Of a stretch of DNA of 64,000 nt, positions 1 through 11,509 are shown one piece after another (position 1 is the stretch's first letter; each line of letters opens with the position of its first letter). Both the position numbers and the translations under genes were made by a program. A model generated the notes under the pieces. It was not told where the DNA came from. It saw only the letters and a list, made by a program, of their open reading frames with translations, and ran no database searches. Source of the stretch: a virus; the IMG/VR virus record IMGVR_UViG_3300040856_003015, positions 10,893 through 74,892 of that record. One strand, written 5' to 3'.

Positions 1-174
1 TGATAACTTTGAATTTTGAGTTAAATTTAGTTGAGTAAAATTTGGTTTTCTATCATTATCAATGCGTTCATGAAGTTCTTCATTTTCATCAAAAAAATTT
101 ATTAAAAATTTACAAACATCAGAACTCAAATTATTCTTTTCTATGTGTATAAAATCATTTAATTCAACTACCAT
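1..174 (-). CDS. Partial CDS running off the window edge; probably the N-terminus of a 2OG-Fe(II) oxygenase
   Basis: Not in the ORF track. ATG at 174 overlaps the uvsX end and reads MVVELNDFIHIEKNNLSSDVCKFLINFFDEN...KPNFTQLNL to base 1. Resembles N-termini of cyanophage prolyl-hydroxylase-like oxygenases; catalytic motifs are not in the window. Confidence 0.5.
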   Translation of the reverse strand, partial: MVVELNDFIHIEKNNLSSDVCKFLINFFDENEELHERIDNDRKPNFTQLNLTQNSKLS

Positions 175-1075
175 AACTAAACTCTACTCTAGCGATTTCA
201 TCAAGTTTTTGCATCACTTCATCAGTGAAATATACTTCAGGATCTTTTAGGATTTGTTTTGCGTAAATCTTTTTACCATTCATTTCATAACGACCTGCTA
301 CATTTTTCCAAAGTCCGCCAATCTCACCGAGTTCAAGAAGACCATAATATCTATCAAGACCACGCTCATCATAATAAAGACGAATTTCAACTTCTTTATT
401 CTCCTTGCTCAAGCGCGACTTGTGAGTCTTTGCCTTGATAAGATTGCCGACGACTTCTGTTCCATCCTTCTCTTTCTTTTTGCTGAGATAGATGATTGTA
501 CTTGCTGCATACTTGAGACCAGAATTGTGAGACACGACACCATTACCAAGAATATAATGATGTTCTCCTTCAACTGTGATGTCATAAACATCCTCAGTCT
601 TTATTTTCTTGATAGACTTTACAATTCGTTCCATGCCACCTCTTATACATATAGATTTGATAGTATCTGAAGGTAATAACTCAGTAACGGATTTCCATTC
701 ATAACCATCTCCAGTATCTACTAAAAACTTATGTTCGCCAGAACATCTAATAGTTTCTCCATCTTCCAATTCCAATTCATAAACATCTTTATCGGTGAAA
801 TGGAAAGTGTCAGTAACTGATGAATAACCAAACATAGTTCTCACTTTGTCACCAACTTGAATAGATTCAATAGGAATAGAACCATTTTCTGTTTGTATCT
901 TAGTTCCCGCAACTAAACAACCCCCACCCATTTCCTTTGTAGGGACATAAGAGTTATGAGAAAGTGTCCCATCTTCAAAAATATAGTGATGAGCATCTTC
1001 TATTTCGATATCATAAACATTAGTATTCTTTTTTTTAATTTTTTCAATTTTTTTAATTTTGATGCCAATAGTCAT
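164..1075 (-). CDS. uvsX: UvsX recombinase C-terminal fragment: IntC (41 aa) + 11-aa extein + 132-aa cis mini-intein + 119-aa C-extein
   Basis: Starts with an IntC ending [12 protein letters not shown]...SHN, then extein [11 protein letters not shown], an intein C...SHN, then [21 protein letters not shown]...KSRLSKE typical of UvsX. GGAG lies upstream of the ATG. Confidence 0.93.
   Translation of the reverse strand: [303 protein letters not shown]
524..919 (-). other. Cis mini-intein with no endonuclease domain (132 aa) in UvsX
   Basis: Block A [10 protein letters not shown], block B CSGEHKF, block F [12 protein letters not shown], block G SHN followed by Ser+1. Confidence 0.93.
953..1075 (-). 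other. Split intein C-fragment (IntC, 41 aa)
   Basis: Basic N-terminus ([11 protein letters not shown]), VYDIEI, terminal SHN followed by Ser+1. Confidence 0.92.
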
Positions 1076-1091
1076 TTGAAATTTACTCCGT

Positions 1092-1099
1092 TATAAATA
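1092..1099 (+). promoter_or_regulatory. T4-type late promoter TATAAATA for the antisense HNH gene
   Basis: Exact TATAAATA 28 nt upstream of ATG 1128. Confidence 0.7.
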
Positions 1100-1127
1100 G
1101 TTATAATCATACCTATTATGTAATAGA

Positions 1128-1763
1128 ATGAAGCACATACATCATATTATACCACGACATATAGGTGGGTCTGATGACCCAAGCAATTTAATAGAATTAA
1201 CAATAGAAGAACACGCAAAAGCACATTTTGATCTCTGGAAGAAGTTTGGTCGCATAGAAGATAAAATTGCTTGGGAGTGTTTATCTGGAAGAAATCTTTC
1301 AGAAGAAGAAAGAATTATACTATCAAAATCTGGATTTGAAAAGTTTTTACTAGATGAAAGTAAAGTCACAAAATGGAAAAATAAAATATCAAATACATTA
1401 ACTGGAAAAATTCAATCTGAAGAAACTAAAATAAAAAGATCAAACTCACTAAAATTAGCATATAAAGAAGGTAGAAAAAAAGTTATTGTTAATTCAGATG
1501 ATGCTAGAAGAAGATATTATGAAAATAATATATCTCAATTAATGGCAGAAGGTAGAAAAAAATCTCAAGAGTGGAAGAACTCTGTAACTTCAGAAGAATA
1601 TAAAATTAAAAAAACTTTATCAGACCCAAGATCTAAAAAAGTATCTGTAGATGGAATAGTTTATAATTCAATTAGAGAAGCATCTAAAAAAACAAATATA
1701 AATTATTCCAAACTAAGAAATGTACTAATTTCCAATATTAATAATAATATCTTCTTCTGTTAA
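1128..1763 (+). CDS. Free-standing HNH homing endonuclease with NUMOD3-like and C-terminal HTH-like DNA-binding motifs, antisense between the uvsX halves
   Basis: HHIIPRHIGGSDDPSNLIELTIEEHAKAH (HNH), GKIQSEETKIKRS (NUMOD3-like), KVSVDGIVYNSIREASKKTNI (NUMOD1/IENR1-like). The only convincing plus-strand gene in the window. Confidence 0.88.
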   Translation: MKHIHHIIPRHIGGSDDPSNLIELTIEEHAKAHFDLWKKFGRIEDKIAWECLSGRNLSEEERIILSKSGFEKFLLDESKVTKWKNKISNTLTGKIQSEETKIKRSNSLKLAYKEGRKKVIVNSDDARRRYYENNISQLMAEGRKKSQEWKNSVTSEEYKIKKTLSDPRSKKVSVDGIVYNSIREASKKTNINYSKLRNVLISNINNNIFFC

Positions 1764-2606
1764 TTCAGAAACTTTTTTCCACTCACCCTCTTGAGTCATT
1801 AATTTATGCTCTCCTGTTAATTTATAAATCGACCCATTTTCAAGTTCAACTTCATAATATTCATCAAACGAATATCTATAAGTATTGATGACTTTTTTGG
1901 GTCCGACCATAGTATTCACATAATCTCCAACTTCAATTTCTGAAATATCAATATTTCCATTTGGAGTTTTAATCTTGGTTCCTTTAAGAGCACATCCGAT
2001 AACATCGTAAGTGTGGTTTGTTACTAAAAGTGGAATGTTTGCTTGTCCCAGTTTCAGAGTAAGCATACGGAATGCTCCTTTGACAAGTTGAGATTTGGTC
2101 ATGTCCCTGACTTGCTTATCATCTAAAGCATCACGAATCTCTTTCTCTGTGGAAAGCATACCTAAAGAGTCTAGCACAAACATACAGGGTTTGCGATCCT
2201 CTACAGGTTTTTTTAAGTATATGTCTACTGCCTGTAATGCTTTCTGTCTAAACTGTTCAATCGTAACAACATTGACAACAACCAATCGCTCTAAGTCAAT
2301 GCCACGACTTGCAAGAAGAGATTTGTTAACTGCTGCCTCAGTGTCAAAGTACAAACAGTAACCGTCAGGATTACTATCCAAAAAATTCTTAACCACAGCG
2401 AGACTAAAGAAAGTCTTCCCAGTAGAAGACTCACCAGCAATGGCAGTAATCTTATTCCCAGAAACACCACCAAATATGCTACCTGAGACCAGTGAATTAA
2501 AGATGTAAGAACCCGTGTCCACAAAGGTTTCGGTGTCGTCGATGTCTGATGCGAGTTGGGTGTAGTCATCTCCAATCTCTTTTACAATTTCTTTTAAAAA
2601 ATCCAT
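1725..2606 (-). CDS. uvsX: UvsX recombinase N-terminal fragment (204-aa extein) fused to an 89-aa IntN
   Basis: Walker A [16 protein letters not shown] Walker B, [10 protein letters not shown] then [10 protein letters not shown]. Start set to ATG 2606 ([10 protein letters not shown]). Confidence 0.93.
   Translation of the reverse strand: [293 protein letters not shown]
1728..1994 (-). other. Split intein N-fragment (IntN, 89 aa)
   Basis: Cys1 block A, LTGEHKL block B (TxxH), WKKVSEL, then a stop codon with no blocks F/G. Confidence 0.92.
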
Positions 2607-2724
2607 TTTTTTGTTTCTGGTTAAATTTAAACGACCAAAGTTTAGAGTAGAGATCCTTTTCATTTGTATTTTTAAGGATCTCTATAATTTTATCCAATTC
2701 TTTTTCAGTTATTGGAACTTCCAT
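2566..2724 (-). CDS. Small hypothetical protein between gp43 and uvsX
   Basis: MEVPITEKELDKIIEILK...LYSKLW from ATG 2724, just after the gp43 stop. Confidence 0.55.
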   Translation of the reverse strand: MEVPITEKELDKIIEILKNTNEKDLYSKLWSFKFNQKQKNGFFKRNCKRDWR

Positions 2725-2731
2725 AATACTA

Positions 2732-4078
2732 TCAAATGAAAAATGAATCAAGTGTTGATTTTTTTTCAGATGACCAACCAATAGCATTCAAAATAATTTT
2801 TAATGGTTCCAAGAATCCCTTTTCAAACTGAGTATCGTAATCAATATATTGTTTCAACCCAAGTTCTTTGGGAAACTCTTGAATGAAAGAAATAACATTT
2901 TCATATATTGGATTTGGTTTTTTTAAATAACAAAATTTAAGTTTTTCACCATTTTTAATTAAAGAATATTTTCCTGTAAGTTTATTAAGTTTAATATAAT
3001 GATTAAACAATAATGCACCTCTGGCATGAATTGGAGTTCCTTTATTATAAATTGAATTGTATGATTGATGTTTTACAACATTAGAAACAGATCTTGGGAA
3101 AGAAATTTCTTCTGGTGGAAGTTTTGAAAATGAACTTCTACAACTATCAATATATTTTATAACATCATCTTCAGACCCGTCCATTAAAATTTTAAATGCT
3201 TCCTTAAGCATTTTTCTACATGAAGATGGAGTTGACGATTTAATTGCTTCAATTCCTTTAATTTTTAATTTGGTTTCTTTGTATCTAACCCCTTCACTAT
3301 CCCACACACTTAGAATATATCTCTTTTTTGCAGTCCAAATCCCACGTTCAGAAATACACTCTCTTTTCATGACCATCTTCTGATCATAAGCATTGACATA
3401 CTTTGCCAACTCCTGATAAGAAGACTCAATATATTTTTCAATTTTTTCTTTACAAATTTTATCTAAAAAATCAACAATCTTTTCTGGACTTTTTTCTTTT
3501 CCATCAAATATAACATCAACCAAAGGACCCATATTAATATAAAGAGAATCAGTATCTGATGCAATTACATAATCAATGTCATTGGTTTTTAAAATGCTAT
3601 TTAAATAAGAGTTCATCTTATTCATAATCCATCTAATTGAGACTTGACCAGAATATGTAATGGCTTCGGCAATATCTAGTTTGTAATACCTAAAGTACTG
3701 ATTGCCACAAGCGCCAAATGCAGAATTGAGTTGGATCTTGCGGGCCATCTGAATGTTATTGCATCTTGCAATCTCCTTCTCCAATGCCTTAGTCGGAGTT
3801 TTTTCATAATCTTGTTTTGCAATAAGCATCTTCTTCTTGTAGATGGTGCGATCCTTATAAATCTTCTCCATCAGTTCTGGCAGCATACCTTTCACCCTAT
3901 GATAGAGTGCTCCATTCGCAGTCATAGTGAGATTTACCTTTTGCAAAGGTTCCAAATCCAACTCTTGTTTGATAAGTTTATCTACATTCACCTTTACGGA
4001 AAGTTCTCTTACCTGTTTAAGTGCCTCAAGTTCTTCTACAATTTCCTCACGGGACATTTTACGAACATCTTTCCACAT
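2732..4078 (-). CDS. gp43: Family B DNA polymerase C-terminal subunit (fingers, palm motifs B/C, thumb, clamp-binding tail)
   Basis: KIQLNSAFG (motif B), SDTDSLY (motif C), KKRY, C-terminal STLDSFF. Start set to ATG 4078 behind GGAG. Confidence 0.93.
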   Translation of the reverse strand: MWKDVRKMSREEIVEELEALKQVRELSVKVNVDKLIKQELDLEPLQKVNLTMTANGALYHRVKGMLPELMEKIYKDRTIYKKKMLIAKQDYEKTPTKALEKEIARCNNIQMARKIQLNSAFGACGNQYFRYYKLDIAEAITYSGQVSIRWIMNKMNSYLNSILKTNDIDYVIASDTDSLYINMGPLVDVIFDGKEKSPEKIVDFLDKICKEKIEKYIESSYQELAKYVNAYDQKMVMKRECISERGIWTAKKRYILSVWDSEGVRYKETKLKIKGIEAIKSSTPSSCRKMLKEAFKILMDGSEDDVIKYIDSCRSSFSKLPPEEISFPRSVSNVVKHQSYNSIYNKGTPIHARGALLFNHYIKLNKLTGKYSLIKNGEKLKFCYLKKPNPIYENVISFIQEFPKELGLKQYIDYDTQFEKGFLEPLKIILNAIGWSSEKKSTLDSFFI

Positions 4079-4079
4079 T

Positions 4080-4646
4080 TCAATTCTCCATAATTTTAGT
4101 ATGCTTTTTGCGGTTTTCACTCATAGTAATAATCTGCAAGTTGTCTTCGTGATGCTTTCCTCCTTTTGAAATTGGAATTATGTGGTCCACTTCGTGAGGA
4201 ATACCAGTTTCTTCTGTTAATCGTTTTGCTTCACAATAAATCTTATTTATTTTTTGTTGATTTGCAGTTTCATCAAAAGCATCTCTTATCCTACATCTTC
4301 TGCGAGCAGCAATAGAGTTTAAAACTGCCCTCTTATGCTCTTTACCCAAATATCTAAATTTAGAAGAACAAGAATGAGAACAAAATTGAAGTTTCCATTT
4401 CTCACTTGTTGCTCTAAATCTGCTTACAATAAATGGAGAACCGCAATTTTGACAGTAAAGAGTTTCCTTTCTCTCTTTATTTTTATTCTCCAAATGTTTA
4501 GGTTTTTGGAGTCCATACTTTCGTATTTTCTGCTTAATAAGAGGGTCGGAGCATCCAAAAAAATCAGCACACTCTTTACGACTTTTGTTTTCAAGAATAT
4601 AAAGTTGATGTAGTTGTTCTTTAGTTATGTTGAATTTTGGTTGCAT
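4080..4646 (-). CDS. Free-standing HNH homing endonuclease (HTH + Zn finger + HNH) splitting gp43
   Basis: N-terminal HTH-like KSRKECADFFGCS, CQNC...FCSHSC, HEVDHIIPISKGGKHHEDNLQIITMSEN. Confidence 0.9.
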   Translation of the reverse strand: MQPKFNITKEQLHQLYILENKSRKECADFFGCSDPLIKQKIRKYGLQKPKHLENKNKERKETLYCQNCGSPFIVSRFRATSEKWKLQFCSHSCSSKFRYLGKEHKRAVLNSIAARRRCRIRDAFDETANQQKINKIYCEAKRLTEETGIPHEVDHIIPISKGGKHHEDNLQIITMSENRKKHTKIMEN

Positions 4647-4657
4647 TTGTTTTATTG

Positions 4658-4690
4658 TATCCGCACATTATTATTTATAAGATGTGGATA
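4658..4690 (-). promoter_or_regulatory. Hairpin with late promoter TATAAATA (4672-4679) in its loop, upstream of the HNH gene
   Basis: Minus strand TATCCACAT...TATAAATA...ATGTGCGGATA. Confidence 0.65.
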
Positions 4691-4692
4691 TT

Positions 4693-5964
4693 CTACAACA
4701 TTTTCTCCAATTCTGCAATACGATTATTAAGTTCGTGCTTTTCAACAAGTGTTTCTGGTGAAACTGAATATTGCATAATAAGATGGGGGTATAGAGAATT
4801 AAGGTCAAAACTAACAACCCATTCATATACTCCAGGAATAGGTTCCTTTACGTATGCTCCACCAAATTTCTCACTTTTACTTGTTGATTTTTTTGGTGGT
4901 ATAACAATATTTTTTTTCTTAAGATAATTATATATAATCGTATCCCACATTCTGACCTGAGAAAAAATGTCGGCATAGTTAACCTTAGCGTCATAAGCCA
5001 TAGTGATTGCCAATTCAATCAACTTCATTTTATCTTCAAGACGGTCAACAAGTTCTACGTCAATAATATTATATTCGACAAATTTTTGCCAACCTTTTTT
5101 ATAAAAATCTTGAAAGGTTTCGAACTCGGAGTGATCTAGTTTTTTCTGACCCAACTCAACATTAGCAATATGATCTAAACGATATGATTCTTGGGCAGTA
5201 TACGTAAATTTTTTGTAAAGATCCAAATAATCTAACTGAGTAATTCCACCAACATCAAAAGTTATTTGTTGATTATTATTTACAAATACTTCCCTCTCAG
5301 TAATAAGTCCCCATGGAGAAAACCGTTTCATTCTTTTTTTTCCAAAAATTTTATCAAGTCGTCCACAAATATATGGGACATCATAAAACTGAATATTCCA
5401 CCCAGTAATTACTTCTGGAGTATTATTTTCCCAATACGCAATAAAAGAATTTAACAGATCATACTCAGAGTTACACAAAATATAATTAACATTTTTTTGT
5501 TTATTATTAAATGGTTTTGTCCCCCATGTAGTTATTTCTTTAGTTGTATAGTCTTGAATAGTTATTAGAAGAATTTCTTCATCACAGTTTTTAGGATCTG
5601 GAAACCCATTTTCTGAAGCGACTTCAATATCAAGAGTTACTAATTTAATTTTTGAGATATCAAACTTAATTTCATCTTCTGGGTATTTGTCCGAGATATA
5701 TTGGTAAATAAATCTCTCATTACCATATACTTCAAATCCATCAACATCTTCATATTTTTTATAAAACTCCCTACAATCTTTTACTGTACCTGGTTTTATT
5801 TCTTCTACATACTTTCCATCAAGAGTTTTATATTTTGTTTTTTTATTTGAATTCACATATAATGTTGGAAAGTATTCTTCCTTAAACATTACATGTTGAC
5901 CATCATGATATCCACGGACAAGAAACTTGTTTCCGACCATTTGGATGTTAGTATAAAACTTCAT
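4693..5964 (-). CDS. gp43: Family B DNA polymerase N-terminal subunit (N-domain, 3'-5' exonuclease, palm motif A)
   Basis: ExoI LDIEV, ExoII GWNIQFYD, ExoIII YNIID, motif A SFDLNSLYP; ends SPETLVEKHELNNRIAELEKML. Confidence 0.93.
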   Translation of the reverse strand: MKFYTNIQMVGNKFLVRGYHDGQHVMFKEEYFPTLYVNSNKKTKYKTLDGKYVEEIKPGTVKDCREFYKKYEDVDGFEVYGNERFIYQYISDKYPEDEIKFDISKIKLVTLDIEVASENGFPDPKNCDEEILLITIQDYTTKEITTWGTKPFNNKQKNVNYILCNSEYDLLNSFIAYWENNTPEVITGWNIQFYDVPYICGRLDKIFGKKRMKRFSPWGLITEREVFVNNNQQITFDVGGITQLDYLDLYKKFTYTAQESYRLDHIANVELGQKKLDHSEFETFQDFYKKGWQKFVEYNIIDVELVDRLEDKMKLIELAITMAYDAKVNYADIFSQVRMWDTIIYNYLKKKNIVIPPKKSTSKSEKFGGAYVKEPIPGVYEWVVSFDLNSLYPHLIMQYSVSPETLVEKHELNNRIAELEKML

Positions 5965-6209
5965 TTTGTAAGACTTTCGTACTTTTCAAGAATAGTGCTT
6001 TTAGGATCGCAAATAGTTACAATCTTGTCAGAATGTATCATAAAATTATCCTCAGATGAAAAATATCCCATCCATGATTCTAGTGTAAAATCTTTTTTGA
6101 TTAAAAATGGTTTTATTAACATACAGTCTGGTTCTCCCAACTGAGACTGTATTTCTTTTATTTCGCTTATTAAAATTTCTCCCGTAGATATTTTTAAAAT
6201 TTTAATCAT
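5961..6209 (-). CDS. Conserved small T4-like hypothetical protein, possibly Sm-like fold
   Basis: IKILKISTGEILISEI...IKPF; ATGA overlap with the gp43 start. Confidence 0.7.
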   Translation of the reverse strand: MIKILKISTGEILISEIKEIQSQLGEPDCMLIKPFLIKKDFTLESWMGYFSSEDNFMIHSDKIVTICDPKSTILEKYESLTK

Positions 6210-6229
6210 TTAAAATTCCCATCTGTCTA

Positions 6230-6258
6230 AGTTTAGCATAAAAAAAGTGGGGCGTCAA
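6230..6258 (-). promoter_or_regulatory. Sigma70-type promoter for the gp43 operon
   Basis: TTGACG-17 nt-TAAACT with extended TG. Confidence 0.65.
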
Positions 6259-6281
6259 CTGGTTTTTGCCAGTTTGCCCCA
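6240..6281 (-). terminator. Rho-independent terminator after hsp20, overlapping the -35 box
   Basis: TGGGGCAAACTGG-loop-CCAGTTGACGCCCCA followed by a T7 tract. Confidence 0.7.
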
Positions 6282-6307
6282 GAAGCGCCGACTATATTCA
6301 ATTATAT

Positions 6308-6742
6308 TTATAAGTAATCTTTACGCTTATGATGTTCTGGAACAATCTTCCTTATGTAGATAGTGAGGAGTCCATCTTCAAAGGATACATCTGAGACTTC
6401 TGTATCATCTGCAAGTGTCCATGATCTATTGAAAGATCGTTGTGCCAATCCTTTATGGACGTAGTTGGTATCAGTTTCTTTATCTGCCTTTTGCCCCTCA
6501 ACAAAAAGTTTTCCATCTTGGGTATAGACATAAACTTCTTTCTTTTTAAATCCTGCAAGTGCAAGTTCAAGTCTCGATTCTACATTACTAACTTGAACAA
6601 GATTATATGGAGGGTAATTTGAAGTAGTTTCATGAAGACTAAATAGACGATCAAAATATTCGTCCATCCCAATACTATAATGATTGATTCTATCCATTAG
6701 AGTGGGAAGATCTTCTGCAGTATAACGTTTAATACTAGTCAT
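6308..6742 (-). CDS. hsp20: Small heat shock protein (Hsp20/IbpA family)
   Basis: YPPYNL, LALAGF, HKGLAQRSF, FEDGLLTI alpha-crystallin motifs. Confidence 0.95.
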   Translation of the reverse strand: MTSIKRYTAEDLPTLMDRINHYSIGMDEYFDRLFSLHETTSNYPPYNLVQVSNVESRLELALAGFKKKEVYVYTQDGKLFVEGQKADKETDTNYVHKGLAQRSFNRSWTLADDTEVSDVSFEDGLLTIYIRKIVPEHHKRKDYL

Positions 6743-6747
6743 TTTTT

Positions 6748-6763
6748 CTCCTTTAAAAGCGAG
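6748..6763 (-). promoter_or_regulatory. ROSE-like RNA thermometer hairpin masking the hsp20 SD
   Basis: CUC-G-CUU/AAG-GAG: UCGCU pairs with AGGAG with a bulged G. Confidence 0.5.
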
Positions 6764-6812
6764 TTTGTAAATTTGGATCCATTATGGCATCCATTACTAA
6801 TTATACAATAAA

Positions 6813-6841
6813 ATAAAAAAAATGGGGTGTTGAAACCCCAA
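6813..6841 (-). terminator. Rho-independent terminator after regA
   Basis: TGGGGT-TTCAAC-ACCCCA followed by a T8 tract. Confidence 0.75.
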
Positions 6842-6847
6842 CAAAAA

Positions 6848-7288
6848 TTATTCGGTTTCCTTTACCCTGGTTTTTTTACCAATATTATATTTTTGTTCTA
6901 GAATCCATTCATTTTTTTCTTTGTAAGAAATAACTTTAATTTGATTTAAAGGAGCAACATCAACTACTTTATTATGATCAACAATCGATACCAATCCCCA
7001 ATCAGAAATTAAATGTATAATTCTATTTCTCCTTTGAATATCATTAACTGTTAGATTTGCATGTTTGCCATCAAGGGCAAAAAGTTCTTTAAAATGAGTT
7101 ATATAATATCTACCTTGTTTGTGTAGAATGTGAGCACTCTGATAAAGTTTCTTCTGTTTTCGTGAAGCAACACCAATTCTTGTTAGTGTTTCTCTAACTT
7201 TGAGAAAATCATCAGGTTCATTTAAAACAACCTCCACCATCATATCAGGTGACCAATTTACTTGAGGTTCGTTTACAGTGTTAGTCAT
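6848..7288 (-). CDS. regA: RegA translational repressor
   Basis: DDFLKVRETLTRIG, LYQSAHILHKQGRYYITHFKELF. Confidence 0.95.
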   Translation of the reverse strand: MTNTVNEPQVNWSPDMMVEVVLNEPDDFLKVRETLTRIGVASRKQKKLYQSAHILHKQGRYYITHFKELFALDGKHANLTVNDIQRRNRIIHLISDWGLVSIVDHNKVVDVAPLNQIKVISYKEKNEWILEQKYNIGKKTRVKETE

Positions 7289-7671
7289 TTGTTACCACCA
7301 ATTTCAAATCGTTTTTTAATAAAGTTTATTTGTTCTTCAGATAAAATTTTTAATGCCTGAATAGCCTTTTCATTACTATAACCATAATATTTTTTGATAT
7401 ATTCAAGATCATCAATCTTATCTTTTCGGATCCAAGGAGAAAATCTCTTTTTTTTCCTAAGTGTATTTATATAAAAACAATATTGCATATCTTTATCCAA
7501 ATGATGATTCATATTCATTTGATTTGAATATAAAATAGCATCAATATGAGAAGAAAGACATTTATTGATTATAAATGGATTATATTCTTTTTTTAAATCA
7601 TGGTTTTCATCCATTAAATTTACTTTTGTGGTATTAATAGAATTCAACCAATCTTTCAATTCAATAGTCAT
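7285..7671 (-). CDS. gp62: Clamp loader small subunit
   Basis: LKDWLNSIN, YNPFIINKCLS, YYGYSNEKA. ATG 7671 overlaps the upstream stop. Confidence 0.9.
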   Translation of the reverse strand: MTIELKDWLNSINTTKVNLMDENHDLKKEYNPFIINKCLSSHIDAILYSNQMNMNHHLDKDMQYCFYINTLRKKKRFSPWIRKDKIDDLEYIKKYYGYSNEKAIQALKILSEEQINFIKKRFEIGGNK

Positions 7672-8726
7672 CTGATTATCTCCATATCTACACCAGGTTT
7701 CCAAAGTTCTAACTCTGTTCTAAGTTTATTTTCACTTTTTAATTTTTCATATCTTTTTGATGCCTTTCTTTTCCACCATGATATTACTTCTTCTTTTTCA
7801 TAACCAAATTTAGATATATAGTATCTCTTTTTTTCAGTCAATGATTTTGCACGATCTATGCAATTCTTAAACTCAATTTTCTTTTGATCATCTTGAAGAG
7901 AATTCATAATAATAGAAATCATCTTTGTCTGAATCTTCAATTTTTTAGATGATTTATCTGCAGATATTAATCTTTCCCCATTATTTGCATTATTATTGAA
8001 CCACCAAAACATTTTTCTAAAGTAGTCATCATGAAATAATGGTAAAAAATTACTTTCAGTATCTCCTATATGACGAATATAAGGTTTTAACCCGTCATAC
8101 ATTGATACTCCTTTAGTTGTTCCATATAAAGAAGTCGTCTCAAAATATTGTAAGTTAGTTCCATACTTCATATCAAACTGACGTTTTAATTCATTAGATG
8201 AAGATAATAACGCAAGAAGTTTTCCTCCCAAATAATTATACCCAAAAGGTTGTACTGGTACTATATTAAATCCCATAACAAACTCATGATTTATTTTTGA
8301 TAGTGGGAGAACTTCATCAAAATATTCATTCCTTGGTTTAGAGTTAATAGTCGGAGATCCAAATCTAACAACACCAACTATTTTAGATGTTGTATCTTCT
8401 GTAACTATCCATTTTATGGTTCTTCCAGGAATTGCTTCTTCAATAGGATTTGATGCCGTATCGTTTAAAATTTCAGAATATAAATCTTGATTATATTTTG
8501 TTTTTGGTTTTGAGGAAGTATCAACGACATGAATAGAAAAACTCATATCGTTTGGATGAACATCAAAATTTGAAAATATCTCATCTTCTGGACCAAATAA
8601 TTTACCAGAAGATTGGTTAAGTCTACTATTTTTCACAAACCTTAGATAATCATCAATTCTACTAAATTTTGAATAATATTCAATAAATTGATCTGCTGCC
8701 CATACTGCTTGGTCTGGAGATAACAT
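7668..8726 (-). CDS. DUF4338 / Druantia DruA-like protein
   Basis: PGRTIKWIV, VPVQPFGYNYLGGKLLALL, FETTSLYG, SMYDGL resemble DruA-family motifs as recalled; needs an HMM check. Confidence 0.7.
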   Translation of the reverse strand: MLSPDQAVWAADQFIEYYSKFSRIDDYLRFVKNSRLNQSSGKLFGPEDEIFSNFDVHPNDMSFSIHVVDTSSKPKTKYNQDLYSEILNDTASNPIEEAIPGRTIKWIVTEDTTSKIVGVVRFGSPTINSKPRNEYFDEVLPLSKINHEFVMGFNIVPVQPFGYNYLGGKLLALLSSSNELKRQFDMKYGTNLQYFETTSLYGTTKGVSMYDGLKPYIRHIGDTESNFLPLFHDDYFRKMFWWFNNNANNGERLISADKSSKKLKIQTKMISIIMNSLQDDQKKIEFKNCIDRAKSLTEKKRYYISKFGYEKEEVISWWKRKASKRYEKLKSENKLRTELELWKPGVDMEIIR

Positions 8727-10843: not shown

Positions 10844-11509
10844 TTATTCGTAAGTAGAATCTGGTTCTAAGGCAATATAATAAGTCATGTCATAAGTAGT
10901 ATTAACAAATCTAGAAAGAAGTTTGGATGAAATGACTACTTCATAAGTTCCAGGAAGAATTTTAATATTTTCTACTTTAAAATTGAAAGTAAACTCAGAA
11001 TTAGTTTCCCCTACGATTTCACAAAATTCATCTGAAGTGTCATTTTTTTTATCTCTAACGACAAGTTTTACAACACCAGACTCTCCAACAACACAAAGAT
11101 CTGGAAGTTGGTAAATTGAAGATGCTTTAAGTAATTTTGTTAATTGATTTGTATCAAGTTCAAAGCAAGCATCTTCACTTGGTAGAACAAGATTTTTATC
11201 CGGCGGAGTAATGATTACATTTTCGTCAGCGAAAAAATACTTAGACCGAGATTTCCCTTCTTTAATTAATACAAAACTATCGTTACTAAAATCTAGTTCC
11301 GGATTTTTGTGCAAATAAAGTCCGTTTAAAAATCTATTGAGATCATAAATTGCAAAGTCTTTAGGGAACTCTTCTTCAATATTCGCTTCAACTAGAATAT
11401 TTCTCATTACAGAAATAGTCCTAAGATGACTCCCTTTCTTAATTAAGATAGACTGATTAATATCAGAGAAGTTTTTTAGAATTTTAAGAGTTTTATCTGA
11501 AAGATACAT
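10844..11509 (-). CDS. gp45: Sliding clamp
   Basis: LSDKTLKILKNFSDINQSI, FAIYDLNRFL, YYIALE. Start set to ATG 11509. Confidence 0.93.
   Translation of the reverse strand: MYLSDKTLKILKNFSDINQSILIKKGSHLRTISVMRNILVEANIEEEFPKDFAIYDLNRFLNGLYLHKNPELDFSNDSFVLIKEGKSRSKYFFADENVIITPPDKNLVLPSEDACFELDTNQLTKLLKASSIYQLPDLCVVGESGVVKLVVRDKKNDTSDEFCEIVGETNSEFTFNFKVENIKILPGTYEVVISSKLLSRFVNTTYDMTYYIALEPDSTYE

Follow-up and report, generated by a model that had tools for sequence, protein, structure and literature searches.

Results

A DNA Polymerase Gene in Two Cistrons

We analyzed a window of 64,000 nt (positions 10,893 to 74,892) from the 74.9-kb IMG/VR virus record IMGVR_UViG_3300040856_003015, in which the gene of the T4-type DNA polymerase gp43 is broken into two cistrons that form, with an HNH gene between them, a tight three-gene array on the minus strand (Table 1). 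The source is an uncultured marine T4-like cyanophage whose record is ~39% complete and holds the N-terminal half of gp43 (N-half) as a single copy. The closest cultured relatives are Kyanoviridae such as P-SSM2, P-SSM5, and S-SRM01 (~72% nucleotide identity), all with a single contiguous gp43 gene.

The N-half consists of the N-terminal and 3'-5' exonuclease domains and an opening segment of the palm that includes motif A (FDLNSLYPH); it matches Pfam DNA_pol_B_exo1 (8.5e-26) and DNA_pol_B (2e-12) and ends in ...FDLNSLYPHLIMQYSVSPETLVEKHELNNRIAELEKML before the stop codon TAG (in a longer form, SPETLVEKHELNNRIAELEKML-TAG). The C-terminal half (C-half) begins with MWKDVRKMSREEIVEELEALKQVRELSVKVNVDKLIKQELD...ANGALY and continues with the fingers (motif B, KIQLNSAFG), the remaining palm (motif C, DTD), and the thumb. 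All the T4-type family B hallmarks (DIEV, FDLNSLYPH, KIQLNSAFG, and DTDS) are found across the two halves, and in an alignment to P-SSM2, S-SRM01, and S-CAM7 the cistrons are collinear with contiguous gp43. The sites D112/E114 and D387..P393 are invariant in 15 relatives of the N-half, as are K114, N118, S119, G122, D175, T176, and D177 in 25 relatives of the C-half. An initial annotation of the locus had gp43 split by an HNH gene just after palm motif A, leaving the catalytic Asp residues of motifs A and C on different chains; the coordinates, the Pfam HNH match, and the motif positions all agree with it.

The intervening gene encodes a protein that matches PF01844 (7.4e-8; 32.9 bits against a cut-off of 21.4), PHROG HNH families, and, weakly, HTH_28, domains that suggest a homing-endonuclease-like function. 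Its stop codon TGA is followed by a single base and then by the C-half ATG, and the noncoding DNA at the break amounts to 46 + 1 nt (47 nt in total). The C-half has a Shine-Dalgarno sequence of its own, as first annotated. We favor its ATG at 4078 over an upstream GTG at 4120 because MWKD is the protein start in most of the 120 relatives listed, the others having short, nonconserved upstream extensions.

Table 1. Features at the gp43 break, with window coordinates
Feature	Position	Strand	Description
gp43 N-half (gp43A-like)	4693..5964	-	423 aa; open reading frame (ORF) list and Pfam
Motif A Asp, D387	4804..4806	-	in N-half
N-tail VEKHELNNRIAELEKML	4696..4746	-	first hairpin arm; KML and stop at its end
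Spacer	4647..4692	-	46 nt, N-half stop to HNH start; holds TATAAATA
Free-standing HNH homing-endonuclease-like gene	4080..4646	-	188 aa, intact; helix-turn-helix (HTH)-like module at N-terminus
Shine-Dalgarno sequence GGAG of C-half	4086..4089	-	within 3' end of HNH gene, 7 nt before ATG 4078
gp43 C-half (gp43B-like)	2732..4078	-	448 aa; Pfam DNA_pol_B 7e-13
C-tail MWKDVRKMSREEIVEELEALKQVRELSVKVN	3986..4078	-	residues 15-31 are the second hairpin arm
VRKMSREEIV	4037..4066	-	C-tail residues 5-14
Motif C, DTD	3548..3556	-	in C-half

Tail Homology to an Unbroken Helical Hairpin

At the split site, a typical cyanophage gp43 reads SPETL-RETRHPSVT-VDKILNQEL...ANGAMY, and in the 31 of 150 diverse T4-like gp43 representatives that allowed both anchors to be placed, the region from SPET to ANG is 37-67 aa long. 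An in-frame insert homologous to both tails of the split gene is present in the contiguous gp43 of Synechococcus phage S-CAM7 (867 aa; by alignment), in 12 metagenomic clusters of contiguous proteins (863-866 aa), and in IMG/VR locus L053 (860 aa). S-CAM7 was the sole match when the first 70 residues of the C-half were searched with tblastn against 50,697 phage records (66% identity, residues 15-70). In the L053 protein, both tails are in one chain, joined by the six residues SNGKND (...NNRIAELESNGKNDEELEALKQVRELS..., within the longer stretch ...SPETLVEKHELNNRIAELESNGKNDEELEALKQVRELSAKVSVDKLL...), and the N-tail is homologous to residues 407-421. An AlphaFold2 model of this protein, computed from a 140-row alignment, has a predicted local distance difference test score (pLDDT) of 95.3 and a predicted template modeling score of 0.91, and superposes on RB69 gp43 with a template modeling score of 0.88-0.90; an earlier alignment of 21 rows gave a mean pLDDT of 57 and was discarded. 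The insert (pLDDT 91-97) is predicted to form a helix at residues 409-422 (pLDDT 96-97), a 3-residue turn, and a helix at residues 426-441 (pLDDT 91-97). As the helix pair is found unbroken in L053, S-CAM7, and the 12 clusters, the break in the window falls in the turn of an existing helical hairpin.

The tails are therefore not the new ends for which they had first been taken, the same helical insert being carried by contiguous genes. The split and contiguous forms differ in two points only: the KML end of the N-half and the ~10 added residues VRKMSREEIV, which lengthen the second helix and are in all split and no contiguous forms. The expectation that tails occur only where the gene is split holds for these two additions; it fails for the arms themselves, which occur in contiguous gp43. 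The mobile endonuclease elements of the MobA/MobE type (see Discussion) bring in foreign tails; the tails here are not foreign, since both arms occur in uninterrupted homologs.

Cassette Transfer and Turnover of the Nuclease

At the same place in ~30 IMG/VR loci, we found copies of the HNH gene that are 86-97% identical. When the content between the halves was compared in ~50 IMG/VR loci related to the window, it turned out to be the same HNH gene, the HNH gene with a 54-aa zinc-ribbon-like ORF or with a Dam methyltransferase gene, a PHROG 314 endonuclease-like ORF, HNH remnants of 100-170 nt, or only 96 or 47 nt. The stop codon, the start codon, and both tails are retained in every variant: the split outlives the nuclease.

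The cassette also moves between alleles. On a tree of the C-terminal core, split forms are in at least three places, one group being nested inside insert-less contiguous genes; an approximately unbiased (AU) test rejects a single clade of split forms (p 1e-4), its force weakened because the nested group was chosen only after the tree was seen. At locus L005, the flanks share ~92% identity with insert-less contiguous genes, which have 142 nt in place of the 436-nt cassette. The N-tail and spacer of this cassette match those of L039/40/42 at 98.75% identity, the cores of these loci being only ~73% alike. Hence, the hairpin arms travel with the nuclease gene, even into hairpin-less alleles. Moving with the endonuclease between alleles and persisting after its loss, the tails behave like those of an element of the MobA/MobE type.

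Some details of the variants deserve mention. The methyltransferase gene, present in L045 and L047 (e.g., L047:3026-3481), is of the Dam-type DNA adenine methyltransferase family (PF05869, 2e-31) and stands between the HNH gene and the C-half. The PHROG 314 ORF, of 175-181 aa, occupies the same site in L012, L015, L016, L020, L024, L027, and L032 (e.g., L015:2972-3499). It has only an HTH-like module in common with the HNH protein, C-terminal in the former and resembling the N-terminal one of the latter, which suggests shuffling of modules between nuclease families targeting one site. By eye, its YVYQY...FYVGMGQGYR resembled a GIY-YIG motif; Pfam gave no such match and PHROG 314 ("homing endonuclease") was a hit, and we therefore call this second ORF just another endonuclease type. 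The hexamer AAATGT is found at both ends of the cassette (window 4698-4703 and 4075-4080), too short to be told from chance, and the fusion ...ELEKMWKD... expected from a deletion between its copies was not seen among the contiguous relatives. An internal duplication proposed by eye (WKDVRKMS against LKQVRELS) was dismissed as unconvincing, with about half of the bases matching.

Absence of Splicing Elements

In a Pfam search, neither gp43 half matched the Hint or intein families, and the blocks of split inteins (Cys/Ser at intein position 1, terminal HN, nucleophile at +1) are absent at the break, where the ends read ...ELEKML and MWKD.... An Rfam search of window positions 1-8000 gave no family at E <= 1 and no group I intron core. 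The first description of the break, as lacking intein motifs and having ~46 nt of noncoding DNA, thus stands. Contigs from metatranscriptome libraries of three studies align to each of the three genes (99% identity) and run across the two junctions (3948-4237 and 4570-4774) unspliced and without joints; their coverage has holes, which we do not read as evidence of anything. Both halves are probably made from one read-through transcript, the library support for which is weak because it comes from contigs, possibly containing DNA.

Abundance and Selection

The MWKD... N-terminus recurs in at least 163 protein clusters (90% identity), the majority exactly 448 aa in length, and the clusters of the split form come from Tara, JGI, ENA, and other marine data, with contigs up to 255 kb. 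None of the 50,697 cultured phage records contains the split form, a negative limited to that collection. Purifying selection acts on both tails, the ratio of nonsynonymous to synonymous differences per site (pN/pS) being 0.42-0.47 on the tails vs. 0.25-0.32 on the core. Synonymous differences are unusually few in codons 2-14 of the C-half (pS 0.21 vs. 0.5-0.7 elsewhere), which fits a recently spreading flank.

Predicted Reassembly of the Halves

The initial annotation had proposed structure prediction of the heterodimer, and complex prediction for the N-half and C-half, with alignments for both, favors an assembly: the interface score ipSAE was 0.88, against 0.00 for the best of three controls; 58 of 80 solved complexes reach this mark, and so do 2 of 110 mismatched pairs. 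Between runs, at least 97% of contacts are shared, and the partner pLDDT is 89. The predicted interface is mainly palm, with N-half residues 367-409 against C-half residues 57-71, 115-152, 171-187, and 230-256. The N-tail contributes N-half residues 412-423, and the C-tail would touch the N-half with residues 1, 2, 5, 8, 10, 13, 14, 16, 17, 20, 21, 23, 24, and 27, an i+3/i+4 pattern over residues 1-27. In all, the tails make up ~14 of the 143 C-half interface residues (~10%), which leads us to see in the arms a local clip next to the break rather than the main glue. On this model, the halves most likely bind noncovalently.

Other Features of the Locus

The spacer sequence TATAAATA corresponds to the T4-type late promoter consensus and lies in the loop of an imperfect hairpin (~4658-4690; RNA fold -13.1 kcal/mol, z -2.3). 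The arrangement recalls the hairpin control described for other phage endonuclease genes and could serve as a late promoter or a translational switch.

The adjoining uvsX gene (window 164-2663, minus strand) is fractured as well, and the early mention of intein pieces in it was accurate: Pfam Intein_splicing and Hint match both pieces. At the end of the upstream piece is an N-intein fragment; its downstream counterpart starts with a C-intein fragment, followed by an 11-residue extein and a complete mini-intein. Between the uvsX pieces, on the opposite strand, is an HNH/NUMOD gene (1128-1763, plus strand).

In some relatives (P0063-P0066, P0039, P0097, P0099, and P0101; 308-311 aa), there is a second break in the C-half, directly after motif C (DTD), caused by an intein that begins with SVVG; these proteins carry only its N-fragment, at their C-terminus, which suggests a split intein. 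In P0113 (625 aa), a complete intein follows the DTD and ends in VHN|S. Some phages may, then, make gp43 from three genes, combining both strategies.

Discussion

Our analyses point to a DNA polymerase that is made as two polypeptides and reassembled noncovalently, without splicing, around a mobile nuclease cassette sitting in the turn of a helical hairpin; we give this reading as a whole a probability of roughly 0.78. The hairpin would be an insert in a variable surface loop just past palm motif A of the T4-type family B polymerase and, as we see it, would have preceded the split. With the homing-endonuclease cassette occupying its turn, each half would retain one helix; the cassette would close the upstream frame with KML and a stop codon and provide a ribosome-binding site and a start codon downstream, so that gp43 would be made as two polypeptides, with neither RNA nor protein splicing. 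The halves would touch mainly through the palm, fingers, and exonuclease contacts known from the single-chain enzyme, established anew between two chains, and the arms would pair to add a local clip next to the break. The active site would be composite, one chain contributing the motif A Asp and the other the Asp pair of motif C. The HNH protein presumably mobilizes the unit: joint movement of the arms and the nuclease gene between diverged gp43 alleles would be expected of homing with co-conversion of the flanks, and the gene would remain split after the nuclease has decayed.

A number of considerations weigh against this reading. Binding and polymerization by the halves are predictions, and the complex model is of limited help in that it cannot tell the memory of a single-chain fold from real binding; because RB69 and T4 gp43 have been solved as single chains, the good score may just reflect likeness to them. 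The RNA evidence consists of contigs, in which rare spliced forms are lost and some DNA may be present. As the record is only ~39% complete, a second intact polymerase gene may lie elsewhere in the genome. L053 could, judging from its sequence, be a secondary fusion derived from a split form and not an ancestral allele. Finally, the link between the helix extension and the split represents one event and not evidence of repeated adaptation, because all split forms share one cassette origin.

The hairpin may have arrived with the mobile element, as in MobA/MobE-like systems, the contiguous hairpin forms then being secondary fusions after loss of the nuclease. The arms and the nuclease do move into insert-less backgrounds, the core tree places L053 among split forms (95 support), the arms of L053 are nearly identical to those of some split forms, and a secondary fusion has been reported for the MobA element (bioRxiv 10.1101/2022.08.31.505936). 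We nevertheless consider this origin unlikely, if deserving of serious attention, as VRKMSREEIV is in no contiguous form and a simple deletion between the AAATGT repeats would retain it; the S-CAM7-like clade is diverse in both loop and arms and has a long branch of its own, which suggests age, and the WKD at the start of the C-half aligns with the contiguous loops TGVYKDE, NDPSADPE, and SNGKND, as though a loop already present had been interrupted. The initial annotation had gone the other way and seen in the tails a newly gained zipper required for rebuilding the enzyme. The helix extension and the KML end, found in every split and no contiguous form, are in line with that idea, as are the predicted contacts of C-half residues 1-14 with the N-half and the finding that the tails of the split NrdA of phage Aeh1 are essential for activity (PMC3045599). 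Yet L053, S-CAM7, and the 12 clusters have the two helices on a single chain, the tails provide about a tenth of the C-half interface, the Aeh1 halves bind each other without their tails (PMC3045599), and the extension is linked to the split by a single evolutionary event. Of the zipper, then, the placing of both helices in the predicted interface between the subunits survives and their role in rebuilding the enzyme does not follow; as a whole, a required zipper of new tails seems rather improbable.

The alternatives that would do away with a two-chain enzyme fare worse. Group I introns with homing endonucleases are common in phage polymerase genes, and the interruption might be removed at the RNA level, by an intron carrying the HNH gene or by other recoding, to give one polypeptide. 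An endonuclease-bearing group I intron is indeed described from a cyanophage (PMC3428280). Here, however, Rfam finds no match at E <= 1, the noncoding DNA is just 46 + 1 nt, nuclease-free relatives stay split with spacers of 47-96 nt, the stop codon, Shine-Dalgarno sequence, and ATG are conserved, selection on both tails is purifying, and the RNA-library contigs span both junctions without joints; we regard removal at the RNA level as close to negligible. Nor does it seem at all probable that the split gp43 is dead and another enzyme replicates the phage: the incompleteness of the record leaves other genes unseen, but every catalytic motif is invariant in both halves, pN/pS is far under 1, the at least 163 clusters include some on contigs of up to 255 kb, and the N-half is found once in the record.

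The idea of a splicing-free counterpart to the intein solution in uvsX, offered in the initial annotation, had been published before (PMC3045599; bioRxiv 10.1101/2022.08.31.505936), and the principle is known from Aeh1 NrdA/mobE, the T4 MobA topoisomerase, and the gp43 of phages 25 and 44RR. We know of no report for phages 25 and 44RR2.8t of a hairpin that also exists unbroken. In these Aeromonas salmonicida phages, the gp43A and gp43B halves co-purify and are active (Petrov, Ratnayaka and Karam 2010, as related in PMC2988022); from that account, they resemble the window in having a T4-type gp43 in two cistrons with no splicing at the split, phage 25 having a free-standing endonuclease gene and 44RR only a short untranslated spacer at the break. 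They differ in that the split is in the fingers, ~75 residues downstream of the window's site, as the initial annotation had rightly suspected, the endonuclease is of the seg type (GIY-YIG; PMC2677866), and the hosts of the split are Aeromonas phages and not cyanophages.

The nrdA-a/mobE/nrdA-b locus of Aeh1 (Friedrich 2007; Crona et al. 2011, PMC3045599) provides a close parallel: an HNH gene splits an essential enzyme by its active-site residues, both new ends carry tails, no splicing takes place, residues of both chains make up the active site, and the endonuclease gene overlaps with the start of the downstream part. The enzyme is another one, and the Aeh1 tails, which are essential for activity through dimerization of the heterodimers and not for the binding of half to half (PMC3045599), lack database matches, whereas those of the window are homologous to a contiguous hairpin. 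Like the window cassette, the MobA element in the T4-type topoisomerase gene 39/60 (Manning and Atkins 2022, bioRxiv 10.1101/2022.08.31.505936) carries conserved N- and C-terminal extensions; it has been inserted repeatedly at one site, the split and tails have been kept after decay or loss of the nuclease, the nuclease has been replaced by other families, and secondary fusions have occurred. Its target gene is different, and MobA also carries a 50-nt translational bypass cassette, no bypass being seen in gp43. The order half-endonuclease-half is also known from marine cyanophage-like DNA for genes fractured by split inteins with a free-standing endonuclease (Dassa et al. 2009, PMC2677866), the type to which the neighboring uvsX belongs; the products of those genes are ligated by protein trans-splicing, in contrast to the gp43 break with no intein domain.

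The break sites of the split archaeal PolB probably differ from the gp43 site of the window. These family B polymerases (Methanothermobacter, and Nanoarchaeum equitans with a split intein) are similarly made from two genes, and, as they are outlined in PMC2677866, have no endonuclease gene between the parts, those of N. equitans being spliced. A search for papers on a split gp43 in cyanomyoviruses found none, weak evidence given incomplete coverage of the literature. In sum, the gp43 of the window repeats the MobA pattern at a new gene site and in a new phage group, the one real difference from the precedents being tails that are homologous to a hairpin existing unbroken.

If the predicted reassembly holds, this would be the third essential phage enzyme site split by a homing endonuclease and kept working without splicing, and one that is abundant in the ocean. 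Nature provides a graded series, from the unbroken hairpin through split genes with an active-looking, decayed, or absent nuclease to insert-less alleles; the comparison set being complete, the need for the tails is directly testable. The site may be one at which a family B polymerase tolerates being cut, which would be of use in split-enzyme engineering. The gp43 gene is a common cyanophage marker, and annotators and phylogeneticists should be aware that it is frequently divided in two, around a middle part that moves laterally. A more far-reaching possibility, which we entertain only tentatively and with the odds against it, is that hairpin and nuclease constitute a self-contained mobile unit with its own noncovalent repair, such that one conversion turns a hairpin-less one-chain replicative polymerase into a working two-chain one, the split-specific three-turn extension of the second helix having evolved as compensation for the lost covalent turn. 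If true, this would offer a natural design rule for splitting polymerases and, beside introns and inteins, a third general strategy by which selfish elements hide in essential genes.

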